This document shows positions 10,410-50,971 of a stretch of 64,000 bases of DNA, one piece after another. Below the pieces are notes generated by a model that searched no databases, was not told where the DNA came from, and saw only the letters and a list, made by a program, of their open reading frames with translations. The stretch lies in the NCBI GenBank assembly GCA_046483985.1, contig JAWOCD010000028.1, positions 9,636 to 73,635 on the forward strand. Direction: 5' to 3'. This DNA comes from Promethearchaeia archaeon. GTDB taxonomy: Archaea > Asgardarchaeota > Lokiarchaeia > Sigyniarchaeales > SOKP01. Numbering within the stretch: position 1 is the stretch's first letter; each line of letters starts with the position of its first letter. A program made the position numbers and the translations under genes.

Positions 10410-11819
10410 ATGAATTGTGATTCCTTGTTTAAACTTGAGAAACTCCAGCACCACTGTCCAAACTGTGGAGGCTTTTTAGTCTTTAGGCCCGAAGCACAGA
10501 CCCTTGAACAGGGATTTTCGGGACTTCAGACCTCCAAAAGTATTTGGGATTATAATTTTAGTTTTCCGGAGATTGATTTGAAATATCGAGTCACATTGGG
10601 AGAAGGGAACACAGAATGTCGCCCCTCAAGAAAATTTGGGGGACTTTTTGATCTGGATAATGTCTACTTCAAATTAGAAACTCAGAATCCAACAAACTCA
10701 TTTAAAGATAGAGCCGCAGCACTCCTAATTGCCCATGCAAGAAGTTGGGACTTTAGTAAAGTTGTTTGTGCCTCTAATGGCAACCAAGGGGCATCAATTG
10801 CTGCCTATGCCTCTCTGGAAGGTATGAATTGCGTTAATATAATTCCGGAGGATATTGATATTGGAAAAAGGGCTCAGATGGTTGCATATGATTCAAAAAT
10901 AAGTGTTAAAGGGAAAACCGTGGATGAAGCACTTAAAGAATCCCTCCGAGAAAAATATGTGAAAAATTTCTATCAATGCACTCCGGAATTTAACCCGCTT
11001 ACCATTGAAGGGCAGAAAACAATTTCTTTCGAGATATTTGACCAAATTGGAGTTCCCGAGTGGATAATTATCCCTATGGGGAGCGGAGGATTGGTTATGA
11101 GCATTTGGAAGGGATTTAAGGAGCTGAAACGAGCGAAAATAATTGATCATTTTCCAAAATTAGTGGGAGTTCAGACTAATGCATGTTCTCCCATTGTAGA
11201 TTCAATTAATGAAAACGTTGATTCGTCCGATATCTCTTACTCCGAAGATCTGGATTCTTATGCATTAGGAATTTTAGTGAGAAATCCTCTTTATTTAAAG
11301 CCTGCCATGGATGCAATAATTGAAACTGGTGGTAAGGCTGTTGCCATACCTGAGAATCTAATGCTAACCAGCTCCGAGGAGCTTGCACGACATGAGGGTA
11401 TCCTCGCCGAACCTTCATCTGCACTTACGGTAGCCGCCTTAAACGTGATGACTCAAAATGATGAAATTTCACCTGCTGATTCGGTTGTCTGTATGATTAC
11501 TGGAAGTGGTTTAAAAACGCCTTATATACTAGATGCGATCTCAACCAGAACTAAAACGGCTGGAATGGGGTCTATTTTATCCACAAAATTAAAAATTCTT
11601 TCACAAATTTCTATATCTGAACACAGAGGGATTAATGGAAGCAAGCTCCAAGAAATTATTGGAAATGTCTCTCTCTCTGCAATTTATCAGCATCTTAAGG
11701 ATTTAGAAGAAAAGAATCTGATCTCTCGTAAAAAGGAAGGTAAAAGTGTATTATATTTCATTACGGAGAGAGGAAAAAAAGTACTCGATGCTCTGGATAT
11801 CTTAATAACGCTTCTTTAA
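10410..11819 (+). CDS. thrC: Threonine synthase (PLP) with N-terminal Zn ribbon and C-terminal winged-HTH
   Basis: TLGEGNT, NPTNSFKDR (PLP Lys), ASNGNQG and TGSGLK. C-terminal SAIYQHLKDL..YFITERG wHTH. True start is probably slightly upstream. Confidence 0.85.
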   Translation: MNCDSLFKLEKLQHHCPNCGGFLVFRPEAQTLEQGFSGLQTSKSIWDYNFSFPEIDLKYRVTLGEGNTECRPSRKFGGLFDLDNVYFKLETQNPTNSFKDRAAALLIAHARSWDFSKVVCASNGNQGASIAAYASLEGMNCVNIIPEDIDIGKRAQMVAYDSKISVKGKTVDEALKESLREKYVKNFYQCTPEFNPLTIEGQKTISFEIFDQIGVPEWIIIPMGSGGLVMSIWKGFKELKRAKIIDHFPKLVGVQTNACSPIVDSINENVDSSDISYSEDLDSYALGILVRNPLYLKPAMDAIIETGGKAVAIPENLMLTSSEELARHEGILAEPSSALTVAALNVMTQNDEISPADSVVCMITGSGLKTPYILDAISTRTKTAGMGSILSTKLKILSQISISEHRGINGSKLQEIIGNVSLSAIYQHLKDLEEKNLISRKKEGKSVLYFITERGKKVLDALDILITLL

Positions 11820-11820
11820 C

Positions 11821-11862
11821 GATCTGCGAAAGAAGTCCCCATCCCTTTAGGGAGGGGATGAA
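11821..11862 (+). repeat. IS200/IS605 left-end-like palindromic repeat (family A)
   Basis: GATCTGCGAAAGAAGTCCCCATCCCTTTAGGGAGGGGATGAA, identical at 25923 and 40724. Preceded by TTAAC. Confidence 0.85.
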
Positions 11863-12095
11863 AACTCTACCTCTTTTATTTTATCGGAAATATACCATGT
11901 TTGTTTGGAAAGCCCTTTCTCCGTTTTTTGTTTATTTTTCCGTGCCATTTTATCACATTCCCGTGGTTCTGGGCCTTCATTTTTTAATCCAATCGGAATG
12001 TCAATGACCATAATTTCGGGATTGGAAATATCTTTCCAGACCAAGATCCAGCCAGCGGAACATCCGTCGATCCCGAAATACTTGTACTTTTCCAT
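11847..12095 (-). pseudogene. DUF429-like (RNase H-like) gene remnant
   Basis: GIDGCSAGW, IDIPIGL and RECD..AR motifs, collapsed into 82 aa. The 3' end runs into the repeat. Confidence 0.65.
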
Positions 12096-12186
12096 TTTAT
12101 TATCACAAAGATCACTAAGGAATAGTTGATTTAAACGTTAATTAGAAAAGAAAAAACTTTCTAATTCTCTGCATATTAACCTTCTT

Positions 12187-12813
12187 CTATTTGAAAACTT
12201 TCTCAAATACACTAGGGATGCTCTCAATGATATTTTGTCTAACTGTACCAACAAAAATTAAGGCCGCAATAGCTCCTACCCCAAATTGAATTAAACCATT
12301 AAGAAATACTTCTAACAACGCAACATTCAATCCAAAGAGTATCATTTCATAAATGAAATAGCCTATTACCATGATCAAGCCTCCAATAACAATTCCTGTA
12401 ATATCCCTAAAGTCAATTCTTTTATGTTTCTTTTTTGGGTTTGAAATCAATCCGACTACTAACCCTTCTAAACCCTTAATAACCAATGTAGCGGGAGCAT
12501 ATAAGGTGTAACCTAGAAAAAGATCAGCAAACATTGAACCCACTCCCCCAGCTAACGCGCCAATGAAAGGTCCAAATAATAAACCCGCACTCATTACCAG
12601 AGCATCTCCAATATTAATAAATCCTTGGGTTGCTGGGACAGGAATTGCAATAAGCATCGTCACAATGCAGATTAATGCAGCAAAAATGCTAGTCACAGCA
12701 ATTGTAACTGGATATATTGGTAAAATATATCCCAAGCGACTTTTTAATTTCGATTCGTATTTTTTTTCTTCATTAGTCTGGTACTGCTCTTTTTCTTTTT
12801 TATCAACCTGCAT
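12187..12813 (-). CDS. ECF transporter S component
   Basis: GFINIGD, FGP..GA, GS..ADL and TLVIKGLEG motifs. Confidence 0.9.
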   Translation of the reverse strand: MQVDKKEKEQYQTNEEKKYESKLKSRLGYILPIYPVTIAVTSIFAALICIVTMLIAIPVPATQGFINIGDALVMSAGLLFGPFIGALAGGVGSMFADLFLGYTLYAPATLVIKGLEGLVVGLISNPKKKHKRIDFRDITGIVIGGLIMVIGYFIYEMILFGLNVALLEVFLNGLIQFGVGAIAALIFVGTVRQNIIESIPSVFEKVFK

Positions 12814-12900
12814 ACTATCTTATATAAGTTCAATCTTATATATAAGTTTTAACTTATATATCTTTAATTTCCAATAAATTTTATACATTTTACCATTAGA

Positions 12901-12939
12901 ATTCGAGAAAGCACCGTCCTTTAGGGCGGGGATGAATCG
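12901..12939 (+). repeat. IS200/IS605 left-end-like palindrome
   Basis: ATTCGAGAAAGCACCGTCCTTTAGGGCGGGGATGAATCG. TTTA loop and GGGGATGAA tail as in family A. Confidence 0.75.
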
Positions 12940-13118
12940 CACATAGATCTATAAGTTTCTTAAAGAGCCACTACAGTAATTACCCGCATTCTTAAATAAT
13001 GGATATAGCAGACCAATAAAAAGTTTAGGAATAAGAAAGTATCTGAAGGTATCTACTGATTACTACATTTCTCTCGAAATATAATAAAAAAGAATAATTT
13101 AAAAAAGAGAATGTTTTT

Positions 13119-13721
13119 TTACTTTTGTTTGAGTTTGTATTTTTGATAACGTCGGTAGATTAAAATTTCGAATAAAATTATCAGCATTGCGGTGAATGTA
13201 ATCATTATCCCAAGATTGGCAAAATCGGTCCCTCTCAATACCCCATGAAAATAGGCAAAAATTAATGCTACATAAATGAATCCATGAAGAATACGCCATA
13301 TTTTAGGAGAAAAGTATTTCCTTACAACGGCAATCAAGGCAGAAAAATAAATAATATATAACGCTATTGGTCCTGCACCCGCCCAAAATGAGACCCAATC
13401 TTCAAAGGCTGGGATAAATAATGCAAGTGTTCCCCATTGGATAGCCATTGTAATTGGATGCAACGTGACTAAAATTACTCCAGTTACCGAAAAAACATGA
13501 TGTATATTAAGAAATGAAGTTCCAAAACTTTTAGTTATTTGTTTCATGAGGGAGGTAGTTAAGGCAGCTAAAAATAGCGACGTATACCCAAGTAACACAC
13601 CTAAACGTATAATGGTTGCAGAAAAACCACCGGGATTTCCAAAAAAATATAATAAAGTTATCCATGCATAAAGAGAGACTATTAACCCGATAAAATAAAA
13701 TCCTTTTTTAGTAATTTGCAT
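13119..13721 (-). CDS. Ferric-reductase-like transmembrane (heme-binding) protein
   Basis: Six TM segments with His pairs (IHH..LH, WRILH..FH). Confidence 0.75.
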   Translation of the reverse strand: MQITKKGFYFIGLIVSLYAWITLLYFFGNPGGFSATIIRLGVLLGYTSLFLAALTTSLMKQITKSFGTSFLNIHHVFSVTGVILVTLHPITMAIQWGTLALFIPAFEDWVSFWAGAGPIALYIIYFSALIAVVRKYFSPKIWRILHGFIYVALIFAYFHGVLRGTDFANLGIMITFTAMLIILFEILIYRRYQKYKLKQK

Positions 13722-13754
13722 ATTTTAATATGATAAAAACTTAATATAATTTAT

Positions 13755-13800
13755 CAAAAAAGCAAAAGAAATCTCTCTCCTTTAGGATGGAGAAGTTCGG
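13755..13800 (+). repeat. Minimal single-hairpin element (family B)
   Basis: TTTAT|CAAAAAAGCAAAAGAAATCTCTCTCC-TTTA-GGATGGAGAAGTTC, co-linear with 50925-50971. Confidence 0.6.
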
Positions 13801-13902
13801 AGTAGTGATATTTGGAACTTGGCTAATTATTACAAAAGATAAGCCTATTTTGATAAAAATAAGGAAGTTGCTCCTATACAGACCAATTTGAAATCTCTTT
13901 CG

Positions 13903-14820
13903 CTACATTCGCATCCTACAACTTCTTATCTCCTCAGAGTGGGTTGGCTGGATAGTTGTTTCAAAGATCGCAAACTCATCAAATAGGAAATCATTTATTC
14001 GTGCAATAATCTCATCTTGATCTACCCCTTCCTCTAATCTTATATGTGTTGAAAGAACCGTAATATCCGGGGTAATTGTCCAAATATGGGTATCATAAGC
14101 CTCTAAAACGTTTTTAAATTCCTTTTTTAAACTCTGCTCGATCATTTCCACATTTACTCCTTTTGGGGCGATTTCCAGAAGAATTCTTGACGAATCTTTC
14201 AAGATACCCCATGCCCAATAGATAATAATTCCCGCAATGACAAAACTGACCAAAGGATCGAAGATCCACCATCCTGTATAGGCAATTAGGATGGAAACAA
14301 AGACAATTCCTATTGAAGAAGCAGCATCTCCGATCATATGATAAAAGACACCCTTGACATTGATATCTCTTTCATAACTCCCTTGTAAAATTATTATACT
14401 GGTAATATTTACCCCTAAACCTACGAGAGCAATGATTAACATGTAAAAACTATCGATCTCCAAGGGATTTAATAACCGCAAAATTCCCTCATATATGATA
14501 AGTCCCACCATGACAAGGAGAAATAATCCGTTTATAAAAGCTGCCAAGACTTCTGCTCGGTAAAGTCCATAGGTCTTATGATGGCAAACTGGTTGTTTTG
14601 TAAGATATATTGCAAATAGACTAATACTTATCGCGAACGCATGAGTAAACATATGTCCAGCATCACTAATTAAAGCAATACTGTTTGTAATAATCCCTCC
14701 GATAATTTCCAGAACCATCACGGTCAATGTAATGGTTAATGAGAGAATTAGCCGCTTTTTATGTGTTTGCTTATAACGAAATAGCTCTCGTAAATTGTTT
14801 TTTGCTTCCTTTCCCACCAT
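13903..14820 (-). CDS. Cation diffusion facilitator (CzcD/ZitB-like)
   Basis: SIALISDAGHM, TYGLYRAEVLAA and HMIGD motifs. Confidence 0.92.
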   Translation of the reverse strand: MVGKEAKNNLRELFRYKQTHKKRLILSLTITLTVMVLEIIGGIITNSIALISDAGHMFTHAFAISISLFAIYLTKQPVCHHKTYGLYRAEVLAAFINGLFLLVMVGLIIYEGILRLLNPLEIDSFYMLIIALVGLGVNITSIIILQGSYERDINVKGVFYHMIGDAASSIGIVFVSILIAYTGWWIFDPLVSFVIAGIIIYWAWGILKDSSRILLEIAPKGVNVEMIEQSLKKEFKNVLEAYDTHIWTITPDITVLSTHIRLEEGVDQDEIIARINDFLFDEFAIFETTIQPTHSEEIRSCRMRM

Positions 14821-15079
14821 AATAATCCTTTATTGTCAATATGTTTGTTTGATATTAAGGATCTTTCTTTTAATATTATATTAACGAAAAACCAATTTTA
14901 AGATTCCATTTATAACATATAAGGAAATCGGTTTCATTGGTTTTCAAAGTTTTCAACTTTCCATTGGCATTGCGGGCAAAAATAACCATACCGACTGGAA
15001 CTCTTGAAAATAGTTCTGATTATTTCGCTCAGGATTCTTTTATAAGTGGTTTGACACTACTCTATACGTTTTTTTGCTC

Positions 15080-16576
15080 TTATCCCACTCGAGGCCATGC
15101 CTTTTGCTTTAATTCTGGATCTGGGGGATATTTGGGCTTTTGTGCTTTTTTAACAGAACGAAGCTCTTTTTTATTGACATGATATTTTAGATCTTTAATT
15201 TCACTATAGGTTGGAATTGATTCGGAAAATTGTGGCAGCCATTTTTGTTCATAATATAATATATTATGCATCATCTGTTCAATTTTCTCCTCGTCTTCAA
15301 TAAATTGGCACATAGGATCAGCCAATAAAGATTCTAACAGATCTTCTGGATTTCCAGATAAAGCTGCATCAACGATTAATTGCTGATTTTCTGCATGAAG
15401 CTTTACTAACTCATTGATATCGGAAGGCAATGCTCCGATGTCTGCTTTATGAATTTTTTTATCCTGAAAGTAGCAAGGAATTTCAACCACGCAATTATCG
15501 GGCAATGAGGAAATGGCTCCATTATTCATAATGTTACACACATGATGGTTCGGCAAGTTTCTTTCCCTATGTTTTGCCATAAGCAGCGCCTTTTCCCCTC
15601 CTTCCATTGGTCTTAAGAATAATTTTACAAACCACCGGTTTCTATTTTTTGCACCCCATTGAATAAGATCATATACTAATCCCCGATACCAGTGTAAACG
15701 CTTTACTTGACGTAGTTTAGTCATACCGAATGGACCATCTTGGTAATTGAAAAAATTATAATATTTTGGTAAAAATTCTCCGACATGTCGATCTTCTACA
15801 TAGTTAAAATATCCATACTTTTTCAGTAAATAATAATTAAACGGGCGCCCGAAATTTCCCGATTCATAAGCATAGGATGCTGCATCTCGTAACTGGGGAT
15901 ATATATCTTTTCCCCCATATTTGATATCAGTAATCCACGCAAAATGATTTACTCCTCCGTAAAGAACCTCAAATCTCTCTTGTGTAGAGGTATCTACTCC
16001 TGCATATTTTAAAAAGCGAGCAAATTCTTTAGAGCCCACATAGAAAAATTCATGGCATAATCCAATCGATTGAAGTTGGGGTTCTGCTTGAATTGCGCTG
16101 AGCATTAAAGTTCCTTGTGGATTGGTATAGTTTAGGACTGTAGCGTTGGGGGCTAATTCATAAATGTCTCTAATAATCTTAATTAAAACTGGGATGGTGC
16201 GGACAGCTCGAAAAATGCCCCCGGGTCCCACCGTATCTCCCGTATTTTGAGGAATGCCAAATTTCAAGGGAATGTGAATATCATACCAATCTGTCTGTTG
16301 GATTCCCACCGAGATGGAAATTAATACATAATCCGCATTTGGGAGTGCCTTTCTACGATCGGTGGTGAGATGTAACTCGATATCTTTATGCTGCATATAA
16401 ATAATTTGTCTTAATGCCCTCCCCATAAATTTTAGTGAGTTTACATTAATATCGACCAACCATAATTCAACGGGATGGAAATATTTCGCAAAATCTAAAA
16501 TATTCAAGGCACATGGGATGGTAAATCGAAATGAGCCTGCGCCTATATAGACTATTTTATATTTTTTCGGGCTCAT
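15080..16576 (-). CDS. Family 4 glycoside hydrolase (NAD-dependent alpha-galactosidase/glucosidase-like)
   Basis: IGAGS, DTVGPGG, NYTNP, GLCHE and GVNHFAW motifs. Confidence 0.9.
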   Translation of the reverse strand: MSPKKYKIVYIGAGSFRFTIPCALNILDFAKYFHPVELWLVDINVNSLKFMGRALRQIIYMQHKDIELHLTTDRRKALPNADYVLISISVGIQQTDWYDIHIPLKFGIPQNTGDTVGPGGIFRAVRTIPVLIKIIRDIYELAPNATVLNYTNPQGTLMLSAIQAEPQLQSIGLCHEFFYVGSKEFARFLKYAGVDTSTQERFEVLYGGVNHFAWITDIKYGGKDIYPQLRDAASYAYESGNFGRPFNYYLLKKYGYFNYVEDRHVGEFLPKYYNFFNYQDGPFGMTKLRQVKRLHWYRGLVYDLIQWGAKNRNRWFVKLFLRPMEGGEKALLMAKHRERNLPNHHVCNIMNNGAISSLPDNCVVEIPCYFQDKKIHKADIGALPSDINELVKLHAENQQLIVDAALSGNPEDLLESLLADPMCQFIEDEEKIEQMMHNILYYEQKWLPQFSESIPTYSEIKDLKYHVNKKELRSVKKAQKPKYPPDPELKQKAWPRVG

Positions 16577-17655
16577 TAAGTCTTTAAGTCTACTATTAAT
16601 TTTAAAAGTTTAGGATTGATGGTTAATATCTTTAAGAGGGTAATATAATTATCGGTAGAGAGGATTTCATCGCTTTTGGTAGTATTTTCTCCATTTTTAG
16701 CTCGTTTCTGGGGATGTGCTGCCTCATTACGCAAATCTGAAATTTTAATCCCTTCCACCGTAAAAAAATTATGATTAAATAGCGTTTTTGAAATTAAGAG
16801 TACATTTTCATATTTTTCTCCAAATCGTTTTTTTAAAAATTCAGCGAACCGGGTAAACAAAGGGGTATGCCTCCGAATTTTTTTATCAGTGAGATTTAAT
16901 AAGAAAAAAGGGATATTACCGAAAGTCAAATGCCGTTTCTCCTGCAGATAGTTTTTGAAATTATAGTAGGTCCTTTGCCGGGGGTCTGATCCGCCGGAGG
17001 CAAATGGTTGTTTTATCCTAAAAAACGAGAGTTTATCTTCGGATCCTTGCAAATATTTTTTAAATGGTTCAAAAATCGCTACTTTCAATTCTCGTTCGAT
17101 CCCTTTACACACGTTAACAATTGCATTTGCAATATTATTCGCCCTGACGCTTGTTTCTGCTTGTTTAAAATCCCTCCGTGTTGAGCCTTCCAATTCATTC
17201 CATATTTCATCATTGATGATATATTGTCTGAGGAACTTTTCTACCTGCAATAATGAGAGTTTTTCAAGAACCACTATAGCTAAAAGAAAAATTAAAGGGA
17301 GAATACAGACAACAAAACCAATTGTCTCCTTGGGCTCGATGATGATATAATATAAGCAAGAAAGAATTCCTAAAAAAAAGCTAAAAATTACTTGAGAAAA
17401 AAAGGTGAAATATTCTTGGAAACCGAGTTCCACAATATTTCTCCGTGCAATTATATAAAAATAGATTAATCCCCCGAGATAAATGAACAATAAAATGAAC
17501 GCATATAGTCCAATTGCCTCATTTGTGGGAAAATTAATTAAAAAGTCATAATATCCTAAGAGAACCAATACTATAATCTCAAAAATTAAGAAATTTTCGT
17601 TCTCTCTCGGATTAAGTGTTTCTTTTAAATTCGCTAAGGTTTTCTTTACATGCAT
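16576..17655 (-). CDS. 4-TM membrane protein with C-terminal HEPN-like domain
   Basis: N-terminal TM helices, CKGIERELK helix and RNEAAH (RxxxxH). TAATG overlap with the GH4 gene. Confidence 0.65.
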   Translation of the reverse strand: MHVKKTLANLKETLNPRENENFLIFEIIVLVLLGYYDFLINFPTNEAIGLYAFILLFIYLGGLIYFYIIARRNIVELGFQEYFTFFSQVIFSFFLGILSCLYYIIIEPKETIGFVVCILPLIFLLAIVVLEKLSLLQVEKFLRQYIINDEIWNELEGSTRRDFKQAETSVRANNIANAIVNVCKGIERELKVAIFEPFKKYLQGSEDKLSFFRIKQPFASGGSDPRQRTYYNFKNYLQEKRHLTFGNIPFFLLNLTDKKIRRHTPLFTRFAEFLKKRFGEKYENVLLISKTLFNHNFFTVEGIKISDLRNEAAHPQKRAKNGENTTKSDEILSTDNYITLLKILTINPKLLKLIVDLKT

Positions 17656-21872: not shown

Positions 21873-21882
21873 TAAATATGCA

Positions 21883-24788: not shown

Positions 24789-25952
24789 ATGAGACTAACC
24801 AATCCACTACTTAATAATTCTGATGATTTCACCTTTCCCGCTCCACTTTTTTATCTGGCAAATATAGTCGATTATCTTAATCCTTTAGTGAGATCTCTAA
24901 GTAAATTAGAAAGTTTAATACTTCAGAGAAAAATGAAGAAGGAAAAAATTAAAGAGCCGATTTATGTTACGGGATTAGCGAGAGCGGGAACTACCATTAA
25001 TTTAGAGATCTTGAATAAACATCCCGATACCGCAACTCACAAATATCTCCATATGCCATTACCCTATTTACCCTATTTTTGGACGAAACTCGCGGAAAAA
25101 ACATCAATCTTTATAGAACCAAGACAACGACTTCACAAGGACGGTATAATTGTAAACCGGGAGAGTCCAGAAGCCTTAGAAGAGATTATATGGGATAAAT
25201 TTTTCGACGATTATAAGTCAGAATTAAAAAGTAATATCTTTGATGAAAATATCAGTAATAAAGATTTTGAAGACTTCTACAAAAATCATATATTAAAACT
25301 TTTAGTAAAAGAAAATGCTTCCAGGTATGTAGCAAAGAATAACTACAATATTACAAGGATGTCTTATCTATTGCAATTGTTTCCAGAGGCAAAGTTTTTA
25401 TTAGTGATTCGCAACCCAATTAATCATATAGCCTCCACAATTAAACAATGTCAAATATTCGAAAAAATGGGAGAAAATGATCAAAAATTAAAACGTATGA
25501 CGGAAATCATTGGACACCATGAATTTGGACCTAGTAAAATTTATATCAATGTGAATAATACTCAGACGGTTAAAAGGATAAAGAAACTGTGGGATAAGGA
25601 AAAAAACATAAAAGGATGGGTATTATATTGGAAGAGTGTATATGATTTTGCTGCGAAACAACTTAAAAAAAATAAAAGACTCAGAAAAAATACACTTATA
25701 GTTAGATATGAAGATCTGTGTAAAGAGCCCAGGAAAATGATTAATAAAATCCTAACGCATACAAACCTTTCTAAGGGTAAGTTTCAAAAAATCAAAGAAT
25801 ACTATGTAAAAAAAATTAGGTGTCCCGATTACTATGACTTTAAATTCTCAAAAGATGAACTAAAAATGATATCCAATATTACCAAAAAGACAACCGATTT
25901 TTTTGGGTACAATGGAATTAACGATCTGCGAAAGAAGTCCCCATCCCTTTAG
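24789..25952 (+). CDS. PAPS-dependent sulfotransferase family protein
   Basis: GLARAGTT (5'-PSB), RNPINHIAS (3'-PB) and VRYEDL. The last codons come from the family A repeat. Confidence 0.85.
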   Translation: MRLTNPLLNNSDDFTFPAPLFYLANIVDYLNPLVRSLSKLESLILQRKMKKEKIKEPIYVTGLARAGTTINLEILNKHPDTATHKYLHMPLPYLPYFWTKLAEKTSIFIEPRQRLHKDGIIVNRESPEALEEIIWDKFFDDYKSELKSNIFDENISNKDFEDFYKNHILKLLVKENASRYVAKNNYNITRMSYLLQLFPEAKFLLVIRNPINHIASTIKQCQIFEKMGENDQKLKRMTEIIGHHEFGPSKIYINVNNTQTVKRIKKLWDKEKNIKGWVLYWKSVYDFAAKQLKKNKRLRKNTLIVRYEDLCKEPRKMINKILTHTNLSKGKFQKIKEYYVKKIRCPDYYDFKFSKDELKMISNITKKTTDFFGYNGINDLRKKSPSL

Positions 25953-26071
25953 GGAGGGGATGAATTTCGTATTTATAAAGACCACCTAAATACAAGGGAA
26001 AAACCTATTTTACTACTTTATGCTATAATCAAAGCGGTTTCAAGATTAAAAATAATACAATTGTGTTTTTA
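25923..26071 (+). mobile_element. IS200/IS605 remnant: left-end palindrome plus tnpB-like fragment
   Basis: Family A repeat, then 25979-26071 translates as RPPKYKGKTYFTTLCYNQSGFKIKNNTIVFL, resembling the TnpB N-terminal PxxK..Y.QSGFK segment. Confidence 0.7.
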
Positions 26072-40576: not shown

Positions 40577-40723
40577 TTTTATCTCTAACTAACAATCCAT
40601 CATTAAAAATTTAAAATAATTAAGAAAAATCTATTAAAAAATAATTTAAAATATTATTAAAATAGATAATTCTTTGTGAATAATAATATATTTGTTAGTA
40701 ATTAAATCAATTTAACTTTTGAC

Positions 40724-40877
40724 GATCTGCGAAAGAAGTCCCCATCCCTTTAGGGAGGGGATGAATTTCGTATATTATACAAACATTTTTATATTTGGTT
40801 GGTATTATCTTAGTAACCAAGTGAAACGCTTAGTGGACTCGTAGGAATCCCCGTCCTTTAGGGCGGGGAGACTTCAA
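40724..40877 (+). mobile_element. 154-bp non-autonomous IS200/IS605-derived element (family A, both ends)
   Basis: TTGAC, then the left hairpin repeat. Right end GAATCCCCGTCC-TTTA-GGGCGGGGAGACTTCAA. Confidence 0.8.
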
Positions 40878-40904
40878 TTTCTAAAAGTAAATATCTGATT
40901 TTAT

Positions 40905-41044
40905 CATTAAAGGCAAAGTATAATCAAGTTCGCCGTCCTTTCGGGGACGATCCTGTCGGGGTGGAGAACCACGCCGTATTGTCTAGTGTGGGTATGATGC
41001 ATTAGGGAGTACGAATCTCACGCCTTCAGACGTGAGTAGTTCAA
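40905..41044 (+). mobile_element. 140-bp non-autonomous IS200/IS605-derived element (family B)
   Basis: TTTAT|CATTAAAGGCAAA... to GAATCTCACG-loop-CGTGAGTAGTTCAA. Homologous to 45064-45163. Confidence 0.75.
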
Positions 41045-41216
41045 ATTATTATTAAAAATAAGAAATATTAAATCAATTTTTATCTTTCAAAATTTATTTA
41101 GATCAAAAATTAAGTCGGATTTATAAGTATGCTATTGGACCTCCCGAATACCTTTTCCACTTTGAAGGTGAATCGCCTTTCAGCACTTTGATGGTGAGAT
41201 TCAACAAATAATTTAT

Positions 41217-42113: not shown

Positions 42114-42155
42114 ATACCATCTCGACTTCTTATAAGTATCTAATTAATTTGAATT

Positions 42156-43920: not shown

Positions 43921-43975
43921 ATTTAGTTTAATCTTATTTTTCACTTTTCAGATTTGAACTTAACTATCCCCGAAA

Positions 43976-45028
43976 TTAAATATAATCTAAGAATTCATTA
44001 AAGAAGCCTATCTGTTCTTTGTTTAAATCGGGATAGATTTCTTTTAAGCTGGATTTTGCTTGATTTACCAAATTTTGAGAAAATTGCTTTGCAACCTTCA
44101 CTACTTGCCTCTCTCTAAAAATCCGTTCGACTGTTTGAATATCCTCGTTTGATAATTCTGGCTTTCGATAAATTTCATTAAGTTTTGATTGTTCTTCGTC
44201 GGCTTTTTGAACGGCAAGAATATATAAGAATCTTTTCTCTTTGGCCTTAATATCTTTTTTCATATCTGCGATATCGTCTCGAATGGCATATGCTTGCCCC
44301 ATTTTTACCATTGCTTTACTCAATGGCTTAATTTGATAATGAATATTTCCTTTTGCCAATATGGCGCCTATCGTTGTTGATTTTTCAAACATTCGGGCAC
44401 GTTGCATCTCTGCGATCTCTAAATATTGTTCCAAAGTCATCGTTTGCTGCTGATAAGACATATATTCCTCAATAATCTGACCCTTTATGAGGTAATTCGA
44501 TGCGGTAGTATACTCATTGATTGCTTTTAATTTTAATTCAGGCGGAAATTTTCCTGACTTCAGAATATCTAACCCTAATATATATCCATAATTACCTCCC
44601 AAAATGCCTAAATCACGCCCATAAAGGTCAATTTCCATGTTTTTGCTTTGAAGATTAAGACTTTTATATGTTTCTGAAACTTGGTTTCCCAACTGAACAT
44701 GAAACGTGGGTTTCCCTCTTCTTTTTGTATCGTCATCAATTAAATCATCAAAAATCAAATTACCCGAATGCAATAATTCTACGGCAATGGATACATTCCG
44801 AATCTCATCGATGTAATCCTCCAAATACATGGGATTTACAATACCGCTATATGCCGCGATTAATAAGATTGGATGGATTCTTTTTGCCTCTTCGTTAACA
44901 ATAAATGTACGCAGTTCACTAAGAAAGTCTTTAAATAATGAATCCGACTCGTTTTGTGCGATGCGATTAAAATACTTGTTTAATTTTTTGTTAACAAATC
45001 TTTTTTCCCTTTTCAAAAATTCTTCCAT
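43976..45028 (-). CDS. Polyprenyl diphosphate synthase (GGPP synthase-like)
   Basis: KRIHP, ELLH, DDLIDD..RRG, GQ and DDIAD motifs. Start ATG 45028, since the longer ORF extends into a repeat element. Confidence 0.88.
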   Translation of the reverse strand: MEEFLKREKRFVNKKLNKYFNRIAQNESDSLFKDFLSELRTFIVNEEAKRIHPILLIAAYSGIVNPMYLEDYIDEIRNVSIAVELLHSGNLIFDDLIDDDTKRRGKPTFHVQLGNQVSETYKSLNLQSKNMEIDLYGRDLGILGGNYGYILGLDILKSGKFPPELKLKAINEYTTASNYLIKGQIIEEYMSYQQQTMTLEQYLEIAEMQRARMFEKSTTIGAILAKGNIHYQIKPLSKAMVKMGQAYAIRDDIADMKKDIKAKEKRFLYILAVQKADEEQSKLNEIYRKPELSNEDIQTVERIFRERQVVKVAKQFSQNLVNQAKSSLKEIYPDLNKEQIGFFNEFLDYI

Positions 45029-45063
45029 AATAAAGATTAAAAACCTATCATTTTTAATTTTAT

Positions 45064-45163
45064 CATTAAAGGCAAAAGCATACCCCGTCCTTTCCGTATT
45101 GTCTAGGGGTGTATTACGCATTAGGGAGTACGAATCTCACGCCTCCAGCCGTGAGTAATTTAA
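45064..45163 (+). mobile_element. 100-bp internally deleted copy of the family B element
   Basis: Shares TTTAT|CATTAAAGGCAAA, CCGTATTGTCTAG and GCATTAGGGAGTACGAATCTCACGCCT with 40905-41044. Confidence 0.75.
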
Positions 45164-45174
45164 TTTGAATAAGA

Positions 45175-47547
45175 TTATTTTCGCATTGCGGTCCTGATAA
45201 GTTTTAGAGCCTTATCTGCGAACCTGCGGACTAAAAAATAATCATCGTGGAGAGCATCTCTTAATGCGGGAATTGCTTCTTTAGCCTCCAGCGGGATTGC
45301 TTCTGCCATTGCGCCTAACGTATATGCTGCTAATCTCCTCACGTGTTTATTTGGGTCATTTAATGCTTCAATGATGGGTTCTTTATGTTCCATCAACATT
45401 GTTGGATTTGCTTTTCCAACTCTCGATAATTCTAAGAATGCCTTCATCCGTGTCGTTTCGTCTTTATCTTCCGTGGAAAGTTCGACCAGTTTGGAAATAC
45501 CCATATAGGCCCATCCCGGTCTCTGCACCGTCACTTCACCTAATCCCTTAATTGCCCGGAATTTTGTATCCTCATCTTCACTTTCAACCATGTCCAAAAA
45601 CATATCTATTGCGGGGGAGATGAGTTCAATATTTTGCTTAGCAATCTTTCCCAGTACTTCAATGATCTGATTTAGCCGCTCCTCTTCCTTTTCATTGACA
45701 AACCAATCAATAATCGTCTGAACGTGTTTTACTACCTCTTCTTTCTCCTTCGCCTTGATCGCTTCATTATAAGCTCTACATACCTTCTGCAATTTTTTAT
45801 CGTACTCTAAATCAACAACAATCGTGGTCACATCGAGTTTGATGGCATCCCATTTATCCTTTAACTGTTCTTGTTTGATTTCCTCTTCTCTTGCTTCATT
45901 TTCCTTTTTGATTTTGTTTAGAAGGTCCTCATCTAATAAGTCATCAAATAAGATCTCTCTATTTGGATTGGTTATTAAGTCTCCCAGAAAATCGACTGCA
46001 ATATATCGTCTTTCATGCTCACTCTGAAATAGTTCAATGATTTCTGGTATTATTTCCTTGATAATTTCGGGATACTTTTTTGCCACGTTATTTAGAAATA
46101 ATTGTGCTTGTCTTGAGACCTCGTCATCATTTGCGTAAATATAGTCTTTGAAGGTCCCTAAAATCAATTTCTTTGCGTCTTTTTTATCTTCGTTGATAAA
46201 ATTATTATTAATTTCCTCAATAAGCTCTAATAATACGTTACTCCAATCCGCAGAGAATTCCACCTTTAATCGTTCTTGTCTCTCGATCTCTTTTCGGCGT
46301 TTTTCTCTTTCCTTCCTCCTTTTTTCTTCCCGTTTCTGTTTATCTTGGATTAGGTAAGATCTGATTTCATTATCTAATAATTCCTTATTGTCTAATATTT
46401 CGATGTTTTCTTCCAGAATGAGTGCGTTTTTGGGTTTTTTATACTTCTTCATTAATCGCTCAGTGAATCTCTTGACTAATTTAAAATTCTTTTGGAGTAA
46501 TTGGGAATATAATTGGATTGCACTATTTGCCAAGTACTGGTTCTCTTCATAGAGGAATGATTTTAAAACATCAATCACCTCTTCCATTTTATCTTCGTCT
46601 TGGGTTTTTAATGCATCATTGTATTTTTCCGCTAATTCTTTTACCTCCTTTTCCCAAGTAACATCTATATTTATTGATTTTTTCTGTAATTCCTTAATTA
46701 ATTGAATTTTTTTCTTCTGTTCTTTCTTTTTCTCTTCCATCCTTTCTTTTGCGATGGATCGATACTTAAATTTTTTTGGAAACATATCCTCGATTGCAGT
46801 AATAGTGTTAATTAAAAATTCTTCGTAGGCTTCTTTTTCCTTTTTCTTTTTTTCTTTGACATCTTTTTGTAATTTGCTGACCACATCATTTATAAAGGGT
46901 TCTCGGTTTTCGGGTTTGGCAATTAGTGAGAATGTGGAGCATCCCATTTTGAATCCATCCATATCTTCCTCCTTGTAGCATTGTATGGTTTTCTTAATTA
47001 GATCTTCAACGACTTCTCTTGCGGCAATCTCATCTTCATCGATGAGTAATTTATTATAAAATTGCCCGAGTCGGAGAAATTCTCCGGTAATTCCTACATA
47101 TTTAATTTCTTTCCTTTTGACCTTTTCTAAGAACTCCTTTTTCTTTTTTTCCTCGATTTTTTTTCGGGATATCCGCTCTTGATGTTCCGTTAAGATCTTT
47201 TTCAGCGTCTTTTGATCGTCAATTAATTCTTTTACGGGGGTTTCCGTTAATTTTCCTAAGGCGACAGAAGCATAGTTAGACTTTTCCTTATCGTTTCCCT
47301 TGTATCTATGGAGTAGTACTCGAATCCCCTTTTTTAAAAAGCCTGGTTGTAAGTTTCCAATTCTTTTCAAGAGATCAGTAGCTAATTTTCTGTAATTCTC
47401 TTGAGTGTGAAAAACCAATTGGAGTATTCCGTCGATGGCGAGATTGACTTCCATAACATCTTCGAGTTCTACCCCATTGTTATAGTCCTCGATCAACCTT
47501 TTTATCTCATCAGGATACTTTTCCTTGACTTCTAATTTCATTGACAT
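45175..47547 (-). CDS. HEAT-repeat protein with five ~140-aa internal modules
   Basis: C-terminal HEAT repeats (ALNDPNKHVRRLAAYTLG, ALHDDYFLVRRFADKAL) and periodic YN/IN helices. Confidence 0.8.
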   Translation of the reverse strand: MSMKLEVKEKYPDEIKRLIEDYNNGVELEDVMEVNLAIDGILQLVFHTQENYRKLATDLLKRIGNLQPGFLKKGIRVLLHRYKGNDKEKSNYASVALGKLTETPVKELIDDQKTLKKILTEHQERISRKKIEEKKKKEFLEKVKRKEIKYVGITGEFLRLGQFYNKLLIDEDEIAAREVVEDLIKKTIQCYKEEDMDGFKMGCSTFSLIAKPENREPFINDVVSKLQKDVKEKKKKEKEAYEEFLINTITAIEDMFPKKFKYRSIAKERMEEKKKEQKKKIQLIKELQKKSINIDVTWEKEVKELAEKYNDALKTQDEDKMEEVIDVLKSFLYEENQYLANSAIQLYSQLLQKNFKLVKRFTERLMKKYKKPKNALILEENIEILDNKELLDNEIRSYLIQDKQKREEKRRKEREKRRKEIERQERLKVEFSADWSNVLLELIEEINNNFINEDKKDAKKLILGTFKDYIYANDDEVSRQAQLFLNNVAKKYPEIIKEIIPEIIELFQSEHERRYIAVDFLGDLITNPNREILFDDLLDEDLLNKIKKENEAREEEIKQEQLKDKWDAIKLDVTTIVVDLEYDKKLQKVCRAYNEAIKAKEKEEVVKHVQTIIDWFVNEKEEERLNQIIEVLGKIAKQNIELISPAIDMFLDMVESEDEDTKFRAIKGLGEVTVQRPGWAYMGISKLVELSTEDKDETTRMKAFLELSRVGKANPTMLMEHKEPIIEALNDPNKHVRRLAAYTLGAMAEAIPLEAKEAIPALRDALHDDYFLVRRFADKALKLIRTAMRK

Positions 47548-47665
47548 TATTATTTGAGCACGCTATAATATTCTTATTAATTTTAAATTTAGCTTTTAAT
47601 AGAGAAAAAATCTTAATATTATATTGGTTTTTGCATTATTATATTTTAACTTTGGTGGTAAACAG

Positions 47666-48169
47666 ATGTTATTAGGAGTTATTTCAGATACGCATGACCA
47701 TAAGGATAATATTTTAAAAGCAGTCTCTCTAATGAATGAAAGAGGAGTGAAAGCATTGATTCATTGCGGTGATTTCATTGCTCCCTTCGTTCGAAGATGG
47801 TTCGATAATTTAAATGACGAGATAAAAGAAAATTTCTATGGCACGTTCGGAAATAATGACGGAGAATTACTTTTTTTAGAAAAGAATCTCGGACAAATCT
47901 GCGAGCTGCAGAATGAATTAATTATTGAGTTGGACGGAAAAAGGATATATACCGGCCATATGCCGAAACAAGAAACCATCGAAGCGTTAGCGGCTTCTGG
48001 TAAGTTTGATATCGTGCTCTCTGGTCATACCCATGAGATTGTTAATGAAATAAAGGATAACGGGGTATTAGTCGTGAATCCGGGAGAAGCATGCGGTTAT
48101 TTATCAGGGACTGCGTCATTTGCCATTATCGATACCGATCAGATGCAAGCGGAGATAATTGAATTATAA
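47666..48169 (+). CDS. YfcE/MJ0936-type metallophosphoesterase
   Basis: SDTHD, HCGD, GNND, GHTH and NPGE motifs. Confidence 0.9.
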   Translation: MLLGVISDTHDHKDNILKAVSLMNERGVKALIHCGDFIAPFVRRWFDNLNDEIKENFYGTFGNNDGELLFLEKNLGQICELQNELIIELDGKRIYTGHMPKQETIEALAASGKFDIVLSGHTHEIVNEIKDNGVLVVNPGEACGYLSGTASFAIIDTDQMQAEIIEL

Positions 48170-48272
48170 TCTTAATTTTTTCTTTTTCTTTTTCTTTTGG
48201 TCCAAGGCCCGATTTTATACATCTTTTTCAAATATTAGAAACTTAAATAGACTGCTTAGCTAATTATAAAAT

Positions 48273-49505
48273 ATGAACAATACGAAGGATCAATTACCCC
48301 TTAGTTCGATTAAAATTTTGGATCTAAGTCGTATGCTTCCGGGGCCTTATTGCAGTATGGTTTTGGGAGACTTAGGAGCTGAAGTCATACGCGTGGAAAA
48401 CCCGCGATATCCATATAGTAGTCCTCCTCCTCTTTACCGAAAGGGGCGCTATAATGAGAGTGCGTTTAACGCAATTCTCATGAGAAATAAGAAATCGATT
48501 GGCTTGAATTTAAAAAAAGAGAAGGGAAGAGAGATATTTTACGAATTGGCAAGAGAGGCAGACGTTATTTTAGAAACGTTCAGACCAAAAGTGGTTGAGA
48601 AGTTAGAAATTGATTATGAGACCATCTCAGAGATTAATCCCTCCATTATCTATTGTGCGCTAACGGGATATGGTCAAAATGGACCCTATGAGCAATTGGC
48701 AGGGCATGACATGAATTATCTTGGAATTTGTGGGATTATGGATTTAAATCGTCCCAGAAAACATTACGATAAATCTAATGAAATACGAAAACCTGTCGTT
48801 CCGGGAATGCAATGTGCGGATATTGGTGGTGCCCTCGTTGCTGTGATAGCCATCCAAGGGGCAATCATCGAGCGGGAGAATAATGGCTCCAAAAAGGGTC
48901 AATACATTGATGTTTCAATGTTAGATTCTGCATTCTCATTTATGCCTATGGCTGCCGCGTATCATTTTGCTCAATCCGTGAATGAAAAACCGCTACGATC
49001 CGAGAATCCGTTACACGGAGCAATGCCGTATTACAGCGTATACCGAACCAAGGATGATAAGTATCTCACGATTGGAGCCATCGAAATGAAATTCTGGCAT
49101 CAACTCTGTGAGGGCTTGGGTAGAGAGGATCTGAAGTTGAAGCAAAACACGCGGGGGACTGAAAGGGAAGCAGTTTTTGAAGAGTTGCAGAAGGAATTTT
49201 TGAAAAAAACACGAGCAGAATGGATGGACATTTTTCAAGAGTATGACACGTGTGTGATGCCTGTAAAAACATTTGCGCAAGCATGTGAAGATCCCCAAAT
49301 AAAAGCCCGTGAGATGATAACAACCCAAGAGCATCCAGAATTTGGGGAGATACCCAATGTCGCATCGCCCATAAAATATTCTAGAACTCCTTTAAAGATA
49401 AGGTCCCTTGCCCCAAAAACAGGAAAACAGACCACCGAGATTCTGAGATCCCTCAACTTTTCAGAAGAAGAGATTAAAACGCTTAAGAAAAAAAATATTA
49501 TTTAA
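48273..49505 (+). CDS. Family III CoA-transferase (CaiB/BaiF)
   Basis: LDLSRMLPGP, RNKKS, GYGQNGP, GHDMNY and catalytic Asp in ADIGG. Confidence 0.93.
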   Translation: MNNTKDQLPLSSIKILDLSRMLPGPYCSMVLGDLGAEVIRVENPRYPYSSPPPLYRKGRYNESAFNAILMRNKKSIGLNLKKEKGREIFYELAREADVILETFRPKVVEKLEIDYETISEINPSIIYCALTGYGQNGPYEQLAGHDMNYLGICGIMDLNRPRKHYDKSNEIRKPVVPGMQCADIGGALVAVIAIQGAIIERENNGSKKGQYIDVSMLDSAFSFMPMAAAYHFAQSVNEKPLRSENPLHGAMPYYSVYRTKDDKYLTIGAIEMKFWHQLCEGLGREDLKLKQNTRGTEREAVFEELQKEFLKKTRAEWMDIFQEYDTCVMPVKTFAQACEDPQIKAREMITTQEHPEFGEIPNVASPIKYSRTPLKIRSLAPKTGKQTTEILRSLNFSEEEIKTLKKKNII

Positions 49506-49617
49506 CTCATGTCTTGATTACCTTTTTTTTCTTCGGGTATCCCGAAATAATCTTCTTTTGACCTACTACAGTTTTGCTTTTGTGAGAAAAATAAATATTG
49601 GTTTATTTATTGGATCA

Positions 49618-50631
49618 TTAGTTTAACAACTTCAAGACGGTCGGTATTGCAATAACTGCGACAATGACAATTATTCCGATGATCCACATCGGATCAAATC
49701 CTGAGGAGGAAACTCCACCAATATATGCCATTGCAGAAGCAATAGATTCTACTGCCTCAGTAAGCAGAACTTCTGTCCTGTCGTAATATGCTTGCTGAGT
49801 TGAGTTGTCGTTATCTCTGTCATCTTTATTGGCTGCCCAATCGGAGAAGAAATTTTCGTGAAGCCACTTCGCATCGTGAGCCCCTCCGTGAGACTCATCA
49901 GCATACGTTTCCCATGCCAAATCCACTGCAATATCATAAGGGTTCTTATCTTTCCCAATATCAATACTTCCTAGTTCAAAAAATTCATCTCGATCTTCAT
50001 AATCATTTGTGCGTGTTCCTACACGGCCCTCTACCTTAGAGTGTTGTTCGTGTGTTTCCCACCCGTCAAAATCGACACCTGGGTATCTTTCATCATTGTT
50101 ATTCTGAGCTATGTGGGCATACATACTCATATCGGCTATATAATGCGTCATCGCACCCAGATAAAAAGCCGCTTGTTCCTTTTTTCCCTCCTCTTTATGG
50201 GCATCGGCAAGATTCCCCCATTTCTTTGCCAGCAAAGCCGCATCGTCTTCCAAAACTTCTCCATCTTCGTAAAAATAGATGTGGTGTTTGCTTCTATCAC
50301 CAAAACCTTCTATTTTTTCTCCATCTAAAGTAGTTTCTACTTCAGAGTTATCGGGGGCCTCGGTACCCAATAAGAAAATCTTTTTCATTTCTGCTTGATT
50401 CAACCACTGCCAATTCGACTCATCTTCTTTAATCAATTGATCTAATGCATGTTCTGCTATCCAATCGTGGGTGGCATAGTCCGTCTCATAATCGTAATCT
50501 GTTTTATTGTAAGCATAAGAGCCATTATTCCAAGCGTTTACATATAAGATGTTGGAGAGGAAAATTATTGTGAATAAAGCCCCGATAAGGAATCTAGTAT
50601 AATATTTTTTTCTTTTTTTTAATCTCATCAT
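49618..50631 (-). CDS. Zinc-dependent phospholipase C / S1-P1 nuclease fold protein, C-terminally anchored
   Basis: Signal peptide, then W...TH, PD, HYIAD..H and H...E zinc ligands. Confidence 0.8.
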   Translation of the reverse strand: MMRLKKRKKYYTRFLIGALFTIIFLSNILYVNAWNNGSYAYNKTDYDYETDYATHDWIAEHALDQLIKEDESNWQWLNQAEMKKIFLLGTEAPDNSEVETTLDGEKIEGFGDRSKHHIYFYEDGEVLEDDAALLAKKWGNLADAHKEEGKKEQAAFYLGAMTHYIADMSMYAHIAQNNNDERYPGVDFDGWETHEQHSKVEGRVGTRTNDYEDRDEFFELGSIDIGKDKNPYDIAVDLAWETYADESHGGAHDAKWLHENFFSDWAANKDDRDNDNSTQQAYYDRTEVLLTEAVESIASAMAYIGGVSSSGFDPMWIIGIIVIVAVIAIPTVLKLLN

Positions 50632-50924
50632 TTTAAAGCAAATATATTTCTTATTATTGAATATTAATAACTCACTATAATAAAAATAGAGTCCTATTAA
50701 TTAGTAAATAAACAAAGTATTCCATCTCGAAGAATTATCTCAATAAATTAAAAACGTAAAATAGATAAATCTTAGATTCCAATAGACAAACATAGGATCC
50801 ATAATTATTGAATTGTGCAAGAATTTGGTTTAATGAGAAGACCTATGAAACCCAGAATTTTAGAGAAACGCCTTGGCAAATTTTGCATAAGGTCAAAATT
50901 GTGAATAAAGAATTAAAAATTTAT

Positions 50925-50971
50925 CATAGACGGCAAAAGAAAACACCGCCCTTTAGGGCGTGGTAGTTCAA
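50925..50971 (+). repeat. Minimal 47-bp single-hairpin element (family B)
   Basis: TTTAT|CATAGACGGCAAAAGAAAACACCGCCC-TTTA-GGGCGTGGTAGTTCAA. Confidence 0.75.

Follow-up and report, generated by a model that had tools for sequence, protein, structure and literature searches.

Gene-less hairpin repeats in an Asgard-type archaeal genome as probable debris of at least four IS200/IS605 subfamilies

The dispersed hairpin repeats found in a 64,000-nucleotide stretch of DNA from an Asgard-type archaeon (hereafter the window) are very probably eroded ends and non-autonomous derivatives from at least four IS200/IS605 subfamilies, whose members inserted as single-stranded DNA, lost their genes and lie in a strand-specific orientation. 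Elements of this kind are already known. Eight repeat loci, with nine hairpin-bearing ends between them, lie in the window; every one is on the + strand and devoid of a transposase gene (Table 1). An earlier note on this DNA had listed eight positions, each of which proved to be a repeated, hairpin-bearing sequence on that strand, and its list was complete: when the entire window was compared by BLAST with the remainder of the genome, repeat intervals appeared only at 11812-11862, 12872-12956, 13744-13887, 25915-26069, 40710-41085, 45031-45172 and 50912-50977, together with two 2-copy blips, and no missed locus was added. The placement of the copies mostly in gene gaps also holds genome-wide, as 201 of 222 loci fall outside any ORF that is at least 120 aa long.

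Table 1. Hairpin-bearing repeat loci in the window and the families to which they are assigned
Feature	Coordinates	Strand	Content
Family A solo left end	11816..11862	+	target TTAAC 11816-11820, then first 42 nt of the IS
Family C solo left end	12889..12956	+	target TTTAC 12889-12893, then 63 nt; no right end
Family D remnant	13750..13887	+	target TTTAT 13750-13754; left end 13755-13793; no right end
Family A remnant	25918..26069	+	target TTAAC 25918-25922; left end 25923-25977; no right end
Family A miniature element (PATE-like)	40719..40878	+	target TTGAC 40719-40723; both ends present
Family B1 miniature element	40900..41044	+	target TTTAT 40900-40904; 140-nt element 40905-41044
Family B1 miniature element, decayed	45059..45163	+	target TTTAT 45059-45063; 100-nt element 45064-45163
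Family B3 single-hairpin mini-element	50920..50971	+	target TTTAT 50920-50924, then 47 nt

Where the earlier note saw a single dispersed family, the window copies derive from at least four IS200/IS605 subfamilies. Its family A, described as identical over 42 bp in three places following TTAAC or TTGAC, stands, except that the identity spans 47 nt, with TTAAC, TTAAC and TTGAC as the three targets. The statement that family B always follows TTTAT is correct for the copies at 13755, 40905, 45064 and 50925 but not for that at 12894, which follows TTTAC and constitutes a separate family (C) that the note had left unsplit. Across the genome, 46 of 49 family A left ends sit directly 3' of TTAAC, true B1, B3 and D copies have TTTAT as their target, and TTTAC lies upstream of 39 of 59 family C pattern hits, a set that was retrieved with 4 mismatches allowed and includes chance matches. 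GC-rich hairpins of the form N8-TTTA-N8 number 157 genome-wide versus 23 in a reversed-sequence control; given this excess and the position of the A left ends after TTAAC, the repeats are far beyond chance. The flanks of complete miniature elements carry no repeat and thus no target duplication, and comparison of the copies with one another suggests that insertion would be precise. The 30 related genomes examined belong to other genera, with ~70% identity in coding DNA and intergenic DNA that is unalignable, and metagenomes scanned once with a flank and once with the left end of family A gave no match to either. No empty site or presence/absence polymorphism came to light.

These elements carry a subterminal imperfect palindrome at either end, without terminal inverted repeats. 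The left hairpin foot lies 16-19 nt from the cut at the left end, and right ends have the form GAAT-hairpin-TCAA, in which TCAA finishes 8-9 nt past the right foot; the stem of the A left end carries one bulged A. Between families the stems covary at four pair positions, and the TTTA loop is constant. Wherever a target was detected, the tetramer 5' of the hairpin goes together with that target, AAAG with TTTAC in 9 of 9 copies, AAAA with TTTAT in 14 of 14 and AATA with TTTAT in 4 of 4, a covariation that rests on only three or four independent families, and the 63 copies with GAAT in this position have no target upstream. In IS608 of Helicobacter pylori, a member of the IS200/IS605 family with co-oriented tnpA and tnpB, the left cleavage site CL is 19 nt away from the hairpin foot on the 5' side and the right site CR 10 nt away on the 3' side (PMC3201880), and guides and cleavage sites are paired as AAAG/TTAC on the left and GAAT/TCAA on the right (PMC5934647). 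The elements described here resemble IS608 in their subterminal imperfect hairpins, in the spacing of the cleavage sites from the hairpin feet, in the left guide AAAG with target TTAC of family C, and in the right guide GAAT with cleavage site TCAA. The IS608 motifs, the fixed 5' target and the subterminal hairpins that the earlier note had pointed out were all borne out. The elements differ from IS608 in that their targets are pentamers varying by family (TTAAC, TTTAC, TTTAT), in their TTTA loop closed by CC/GG, and in being known from sequence alone. Family A also departs from the simple guide rule, its AAAG being displaced 4 nt from the hairpin foot and its foot tetramer, AAGT, mismatching TAAC. 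Within family A, GCGAAAGAAGT is a candidate stretch for the bases that would read TTAAC.

The earlier note called for tnpA/tnpB loci with the same ends, and these exist: family A ends flank copies of tnpA (Y1) and tnpB elsewhere in the genome, so that the repeats do share their ends with gene-bearing elements, contrary to the refuting condition set in that note. Of the 15 genome matches to PF01797 (Y1_Tnp), 11 have a left end of family A ~100-150 nt upstream. One TnpA fragment (C66) matches the Y1_Tnp Pfam model at 1.3e-36 and carries, as does the Y1 TnpA of IS608, the HUH (here HIH) and SPSY motifs; no canonical PCNA-binding motif was evident on inspection of the TnpA C-terminus. Every assembled and translated tnpA copy is broken, by frameshift or deletion, and the assembly contains no intact tnpA. 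The TnpB Zn-ribbon (PF07282) has 26 genome matches, and the right end of family A (50 copies) lies ~110-150 nt 3' of such matches. An ORF of 408 aa on C97 encodes a near full-length family A TnpB with HTH_OrfB_IS605, OrfB_IS605 and TNB domains, and all B-type TnpB matches lie in open frames of <180 aa or contain stops.

Against this background the window copies can be read as stages of decay, the signs of which are variable truncation points, unique deletion junctions, fusions of left-end and right-end hairpins, and the broken tnpA. The family A copy at 11816 consists of the guide block and hairpin and is truncated directly 3' of the latter; its target contains the TAA stop of ORF 10410-11819, such that the copy begins one base past the stop codon. 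The family C copy has AAAG immediately 5' of its hairpin foot. In the family D remnant the left-end stem has decayed and is followed, after an internal deletion of ~145 nt, by a 94-nt internal segment (13794-13887) common to D and B1 elements. Positions 25981-26069 of the second family A remnant match reference positions 844-935, the 5' part of tnpB (codons 108-137), and a sulfotransferase ORF (24789-25952) owes its final 10 codons and its stop to this remnant. The same copy was also considered as part of the neighbouring 430-aa minus-strand ORF, a reading that was rejected, that ORF encoding a beta-propeller protein.

The miniature forms carry the decay further. In the family A element at 40719, ~104 nt from the start of the IS are fused to the ~55 nt at its end (GAAT-hairpin-AGACTTCAAT); the element has neither an ORF nor a target duplication, and its deletion junction is found nowhere else in the genome; the three other family A miniatures each have a different one. 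The B1 element at 40905 runs from a left end through a portion of the tnpB-distal (omega-RNA) region to a right end of the form GAAT-hairpin-TAGTTCAA, and is 83-85% identical to longer B1 elements elsewhere in the genome. Its relative at 45064 has lost the 3' arm of the left hairpin by deletion and carries a mutated right cleavage site, TTAA for TCAA. The B3 element is reduced to a left tip, an AAAA guide, one hairpin and the right tip TAGTTCAA. At least six further copies of this 47-nt form occur elsewhere in the genome, and such stubs appear to be the sole deleted form that was copied further. The dense population of non-autonomous elements proposed in the earlier note is gene-less, but it is made up mostly of eroded fragments or unique deletion derivatives and is not a uniform mobile set.

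The closest counterparts are the palindrome-associated transposable elements (PATEs) of Haloquadratum walsbyi, which include 52-bp terminal-only forms (Dyall-Smith et al. 2011, PMC3119063). Neither kind contains a gene; in both, palindromes related to IS605-type transposons lie near the termini, targeting is by a short 5' oligonucleotide, inverted terminal repeats and target duplication are absent, and the parent transposase genes are for the most part broken; deletion of the core between two similar palindromes yields single-palindrome stubs of ~50 bp. The window elements of 47, 100, 140 and 154 nt likewise carry both tips and are too short for a transposase, and the solo left ends are fragments, not PATEs. 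The two differ in that the host here is Asgard-type (Promethearchaeota-like) and not a haloarchaeon, in their sequence families, in the absence here of SMR-type elements within the palindromes, and in that the derivatives of family A are for the most part one-off deletions in situ, whereas PATEs are amplified and homogeneous.

In the favoured explanation, a Y1 (HUH) TnpA would insert the single-stranded element 3' of a family-specific pentamer without target duplication, the pentamer being recognised by the tetranucleotide guide 5' of the left hairpin. Most copies would then lose their genes by internal or one-sided deletion, in several cases between the left and the right hairpin, which resemble each other, and these deletions would leave solo left ends, two-ended PATE-like miniature elements and 47-nt single-hairpin stubs.

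Two readings would grant these remnants a function. They might form a bank of stand-alone guide RNAs, in which the miniatures keep their omega-RNA end and are protected or re-homed by TnpB acting in trans. The B1 miniature does retain ~130 nt of the tnpB-distal region up to its right end, one near full-length family A TnpB ORF is present, and TnpB homing is documented in bacteria (PMC10055086). The idea is nevertheless quite improbable: the family A miniature keeps only ~55 nt of its right end, the B-type TnpB frames are short or interrupted, the 45064 copy has a mutated right tip and lacks a hairpin arm, and a scan of the window against Rfam (gathering thresholds) matched no RNA family. A scan of the window for tRNAs gave none.

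The second reading, suggested in the earlier note, is that of domestication in the manner of bacterial REPs, in which the host, or else a Y1 enzyme of the RAYT type, would retain the hairpins for roles such as stabilising transcripts, terminating them or structuring the chromosome. Like REP/BIME sequences, which resemble IS200/IS605 ends (PMC3333891), the repeats are short GC-rich hairpins, mostly intergenic and, at 157 genome-wide, of high copy number. Yet there is no stand-alone RAYT-type gene, most Y1 matches lying just beside family A left ends and every translated copy being frameshifted or deleted, and there is neither a conserved GTAG head nor any BIME-like inverted pair: all 17 pairs <1 kb apart are co-oriented, and the window pair 40724/40905 is in tandem. 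Truncation points are arbitrary, with some stems broken, and there is no bias relative to the direction of flanking genes. The copies are decaying and are not conserved across relatives; none of the 30 related genomes yielded the family A left end, and 5 of 10 relatives checked had right-end-type hairpins at control level. We regard domestication as highly improbable, more so than the guide-RNA bank, and take the repeats to be transposon remnants.

The shared strand of the window copies, which the earlier note had linked to replication, is part of a genome-wide orientation bias that follows strand compositional asymmetry. Family A loci lie in the majority orientation of their own contig in 64 of 67 cases, and 22 of 25 contigs are uniform for family A orientation versus 8.8 expected. 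Pairs 10-170 kb apart are 73-82% co-oriented. Between families A and C, co-orientation is 83%. Orientation bears no relation to the direction in which flanking genes run (49 vs 51). In 35 of 38 contigs the AT3 asymmetry, corrected for gene strand, has the sign opposite to the A orientation (p 7e-8), and in 31 of 38 the corrected GC3 asymmetry agrees with it in sign. Taken locus by locus, the AT3 rule is followed by 72 of 79 A, 47 of 60 B, 20 of 28 C and 12 of 19 D copies, although in these orientation counts loci sharing a contig are not independent. Raw GC skew and gene-strand bias showed no link to orientation, which emerges only with the gene-strand-corrected third-position skews.

The top strand of the elements is thus T- and G-rich, which fits the lagging-strand template as the site of insertion, with fork direction read only from the third-position skew. 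Bacterial members of the IS200 and IS200/IS605 families show a bias for the direction in which the fork advances (PMC3971601; PMC5027513), and a lagging-strand-template insertion bias is reported for ISDra2 and other IS200/IS605 members (Ton-Hoang 2010, cited in PMC5027513; Gomez et al. 2014, PMC3971601). The same bias is known for IS608. As in ISDra2 and its relatives, the bias seen here is of chromosome scale, with the element pointing with fork advance as judged from leading-strand-type composition, and the target is a pentanucleotide (TTGAT in ISDra2); those systems, however, are in bacteria with known origins, whereas fork direction is here deduced from skew in a 128-contig archaeal assembly. 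The common orientation would then stem from strand-specific insertion at chromosome scale, the top strand joining the one whose third codon positions are rich in T and G and whose composition would be that of the leading strand and hence of the lagging-strand template.

Several observations call for caution. The orientation flip at an origin that the earlier note had anticipated was not seen at cdc6 on C85, the sole cdc6 gene with enough elements nearby, and the polarity of the skew is uncalibrated against real forks, because the cumulative-skew turning points near cdc6 on C37 and C50 have opposite senses. An orientation switch at the left edge of the window's contig (contig 6.9-21.4 kb) was rejected as an origin, as it coincides with no turn in cumulative third-position skew and involves two non-A copies only. 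In the related genome G003, 70 B3-type right ends show no within-contig co-orientation (8 same, 13 different); the closed relatives G026 and G027 have 0 and 4 TnpB matches, numbers too small for a whole-chromosome view of orientation. Together with the raw GC skew, the results for C85 and G003 would favour a cause other than replication, such as orientation-preserving local hopping, regional duplication or transcription-linked selection. Such a cause is unlikely, if less so than either functional reading, for co-orientation extends to 170 kb and across families, is indifferent to flanking gene direction and tracks the corrected third-position asymmetry; segmental duplication is excluded, since the flanks of the copies are unrelated. 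As to whether family A orientation and third-codon-position skew together give a faithful record of fork direction in this uncultured archaeon, we consider this a real possibility while leaning slightly against it.

The elements are ordinary transposon debris, and their relevance is chiefly one of annotation: they account for repeats and contig breaks, for one altered gene end and for hairpins that could be mistaken for regulatory RNAs. To our knowledge, no replichores, origins or termini have been mapped experimentally in Asgard archaea. The near-uniform orientation of the youngest family, in agreement with the corrected skew, offers a cheap and testable handle on the direction of replication in these organisms, and would extend the pattern of replication-coupled IS200/IS605 insertion beyond bacteria. 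If the record proves faithful, IS200/IS605 debris could be used for mapping replichores, origins and termini in Asgard MAGs.

The repeats of the window are IS200/IS605 remnants and PATE-like miniatures (PATE, palindrome-associated transposable element) in an Asgard-type archaeon, and belong to a known kind of element. The earlier note had listed at least eight plus-strand IS200/IS605-end palindromes, and repeat detection and direct reading recovered them all. In a BLAST search of the entire window against the rest of the genome (4.06 Mb, 128 contigs), multi-copy sequence was restricted to seven stretches. These are flanked by ordinary chromosomal genes, among them those for a PLP enzyme, an ECF transporter, a cation efflux protein, a sulfotransferase, IMP dehydrogenase and a polyprenyl synthase. 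No transposase was found among the window ORFs near the repeats, and Rfam and tRNA scans of the window gave no matches.

Multi-copy stretches of the window (BLAST against the rest of the genome) and the elements read in them
Stretch	Element	Strand	Description
11812-11862	11816	+	Family A solo left end, 42 nt; begins one base 3' of the stop codon of ORF 10410-11819
12872-12956	12894	+	Family C left end only
13744-13887	13755	+	Family D: left end, ~145-nt internal deletion, internal segment; without right end
25915-26069	25918	+	Family A remnant: left end and 92-nt tnpB piece, without right end
40710-41085 (two adjacent elements)	40724-40877	+	Family A derivative: first ~104 nt and last ~55 nt of the IS
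	40905-41044	+	Family B1 miniature, 83-85% identity to longer copies
45031-45172	45064-45163	+	Family B1 miniature; one left-hairpin arm lost, TTAA replacing TCAA
50912-50977	50925-50971	+	Family B3 single-hairpin stub, 47 nt: left tip, guide, one hairpin, right tip

Two elements touch coding sequence. The sulfotransferase-family ORF 24789-25952 (+) continues across the TTAAC target into a family A left end, where a TAG in the hairpin loop terminates it; its final ten codons are therefore transposon-derived. ORF 10410-11819 (+), which combines a PLP-dependent enzyme domain with a fused winged-helix (PadR/HxlR-like) domain at its C-terminus, has its TAA stop within the TTAAC target of the next element. 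Elsewhere in the window, two long ORFs (56412-58406 and 62734 onward) start with in-frame tandem repeats, a 12-nt unit present about five times (56416-56476) and a 51-nt unit present twice (62728-62829). Because they have a 70-nt stretch in common at 71% identity (56524-56593 and 62846-62915), they probably encode paralogous repeat-bearing membrane or surface proteins. Adaptin_N, Cnd1 and Integrator-like matches, all weak, were obtained for the 790-aa HEAT-repeat product of 45175-47547 (-), which may be one of the eukaryote-like repeat proteins that have been discussed in Asgard archaea.

The repeats do not form one family. Split by the sequence 3' of the target in genome-wide pattern and BLAST searches, they fall into at least four, with TTTAC as the target of family C and TTTAT as that of B1, B3 and D. 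Family A has 49 left ends in the genome, 46 of them with TTAAC directly 5' and unrelated DNA upstream, and 50 right ends, which read GAAT, hairpin, AGACTTCAA and usually T before unrelated DNA; in the B-type right end, GAAT and the hairpin are followed by TAGTTCAA. GC-rich N8-TTTA-N8 hairpins number 157 in the genome vs 23 in a reversed-sequence control. Their loop and closing CC/GG are invariant, while several alternative Watson-Crick pairs are found at each of four of the eight stem positions, the pattern to be expected if it is the hairpin structure that is recognised.

The cleavage sites of IS608 are TTAC, located 19 nt 5' of the hairpin foot on the left, and TCAA, located 10 nt 3' of the foot on the right (PMC3201880); guide tetranucleotides 5' of the hairpins, AAAG left and GAAT right, read them (PMC3201880; PMC5934647). 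In the present genome the cut and the left foot are separated by 16-19 nt, and on the right the last base of TCAA falls 8-9 nt beyond the foot. Among GC-rich hairpins genome-wide, counting only those whose target pentamer was detected at the expected spacing, a foot-adjacent AAAG accompanies upstream TTTAC (9/9), and AAAA (14/14) and AATA (4/4) accompany TTTAT; hairpins with GAAT are right ends, 63/63 being without an upstream target. A G-to-A change in the guide thus pairs with a C-to-T change in the target, across only three or four independent families. The matching rule is that of IS608, and cleavage would follow IS608-type chemistry, with the guide reading the target. Family A is the exception: its AAAG lies four bases from the hairpin foot, and no simple guide reading of TTAAC can be assigned.

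Elements that share these ends and bear tnpA and tnpB, whose absence would have told against the earlier note's reading, occur elsewhere in the genome. On many contigs family A left ends are followed after ~100-150 nt by Y1_Tnp (PF01797) matches, TnpB Zn-ribbon (PF07282) matches precede family A right ends by ~110-150 nt, and one contig (C97) carries a left end, tnpA and a 408-aa tnpB (HTH_OrfB_IS605, OrfB_IS605 and TNB domains) in IS608 order. A TnpA fragment matches Y1_Tnp at 1.3e-36, with HIH and SPSY motifs. Frameshifts or internal deletions affect all tnpA copies in the assembly, and only one TnpB frame exceeds 180 aa; many copies lie at contig ends, and intact ones could be hidden in collapsed repeats. 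MAGs labelled Promethearchaeota supply the closest TnpB relatives (61-90% identity), and two of them also show a left end that is preceded by TTTAAC and contains the GCGAAAGAAGT block seen here, which supports the Asgard assignment.

Deletion appears in many forms. The junction of the derivative at 40724-40877 is unique in the genome, the other short family A derivatives all differing, and at least six copies like the 47-nt B3 stub occur elsewhere. At other sites in the genome, family A left and right ends are fused via their similar hairpins or shortened to 23 nt, which makes deletion the predominant fate of the elements. Haloquadratum PATEs, 52-bp terminal-only forms included, have been described in the same terms (PMC3119063). 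The 23-nt relics (C85:35013, C98:24969), the smallest deletion products seen, join the first 17 nt of the A left end directly to TTCAAT of the right end and still have TTAAC 5'. At C127:1-170 and C125:1-110, at least three tandem copies of a 54-nt unit (family C left tip after TTAC, one hairpin, family A right tip) run into the contig ends; the position of the array, with a full right end of family A on one side and a left end of family C on the other, suggests unequal recombination between these two similar hairpins.

The suggestion that the repeats may have been domesticated like bacterial REPs gains no support, and four observations count against it. The search for Y1 genes gave no stand-alone one, the copies examined being broken and adjoining a family A left end; no inverted pairs of repeats occur; truncation points are arbitrary and some stems broken; and the family A left end was not found in the 30 relatives searched, with right-end-type hairpins only at control level in five relatives.

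The shared strand remarked on in the earlier note extends genome-wide, within contigs. The 222 merged loci comprise 110 plus and 112 minus, and locus pairs 10-170 kb apart are 73-82% co-oriented. Family A, which is the youngest and alone carries tnpA, gives the strongest signal, with 64/67 loci in the contig-majority orientation and 22/25 contigs uniform vs 8.8 expected; that of the other families is weaker (68/87 vs 61.7 expected). Orientation is unrelated to flanking gene direction (49 co-directional, 51 opposed) and to raw GC skew. In a related genome of another genus of the same family (G003), 70 B3-type right ends (CCTTTAGG...GGTAGTTCAA) were found vs 0 in the control, and unlike family A here they show no within-contig co-orientation (adjacent pairs 8 same, 13 different). 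Closed genomes of relatives hold few elements, too few for an orientation test.

Orientation does track the third-codon-position asymmetry, computed apart for plus- and minus-strand genes. On 35/38 contigs the AT component of this asymmetry (AT3) and family A orientation have opposite signs (p 7e-8), and on 31/38 the GC component (GC3) has the same sign as the orientation, so that T and G richness falls on the element top strand. Such richness is the classical leading-strand composition, and the leading strand is identical in sequence to the lagging-strand template. By locus, the AT3 rule holds for 72/79 in A, 47/60 in B, 20/28 in C and 12/19 in D; along the window's contig the cumulative AT3 curve declines over the full length, consistent with all A copies being plus. 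The genome has three Orc1/Cdc6 genes (C37:28.8 kb, C50:83.3 kb, C85:39.5 kb). On C37 the cumulative third-position AT skew reaches its minimum at ~11-18 kb, and on C50 its maximum at ~64-72 kb, turning points each 10-19 kb from the cdc6 gene and opposite in sense; on C85 there is neither a turn nor, at the cdc6 gene, the orientation flip that had been proposed for an origin. With fork direction here judged from skew alone, the orientation bias matches the strand bias on record for bacterial IS608, ISDra2, IS200 and IS200/IS605 families (PMC5027513; PMC3971601). The analysis thus adds a genome-wide measurement of strand bias and shows that this bias depends on family and agrees with gene-strand-corrected composition skew.
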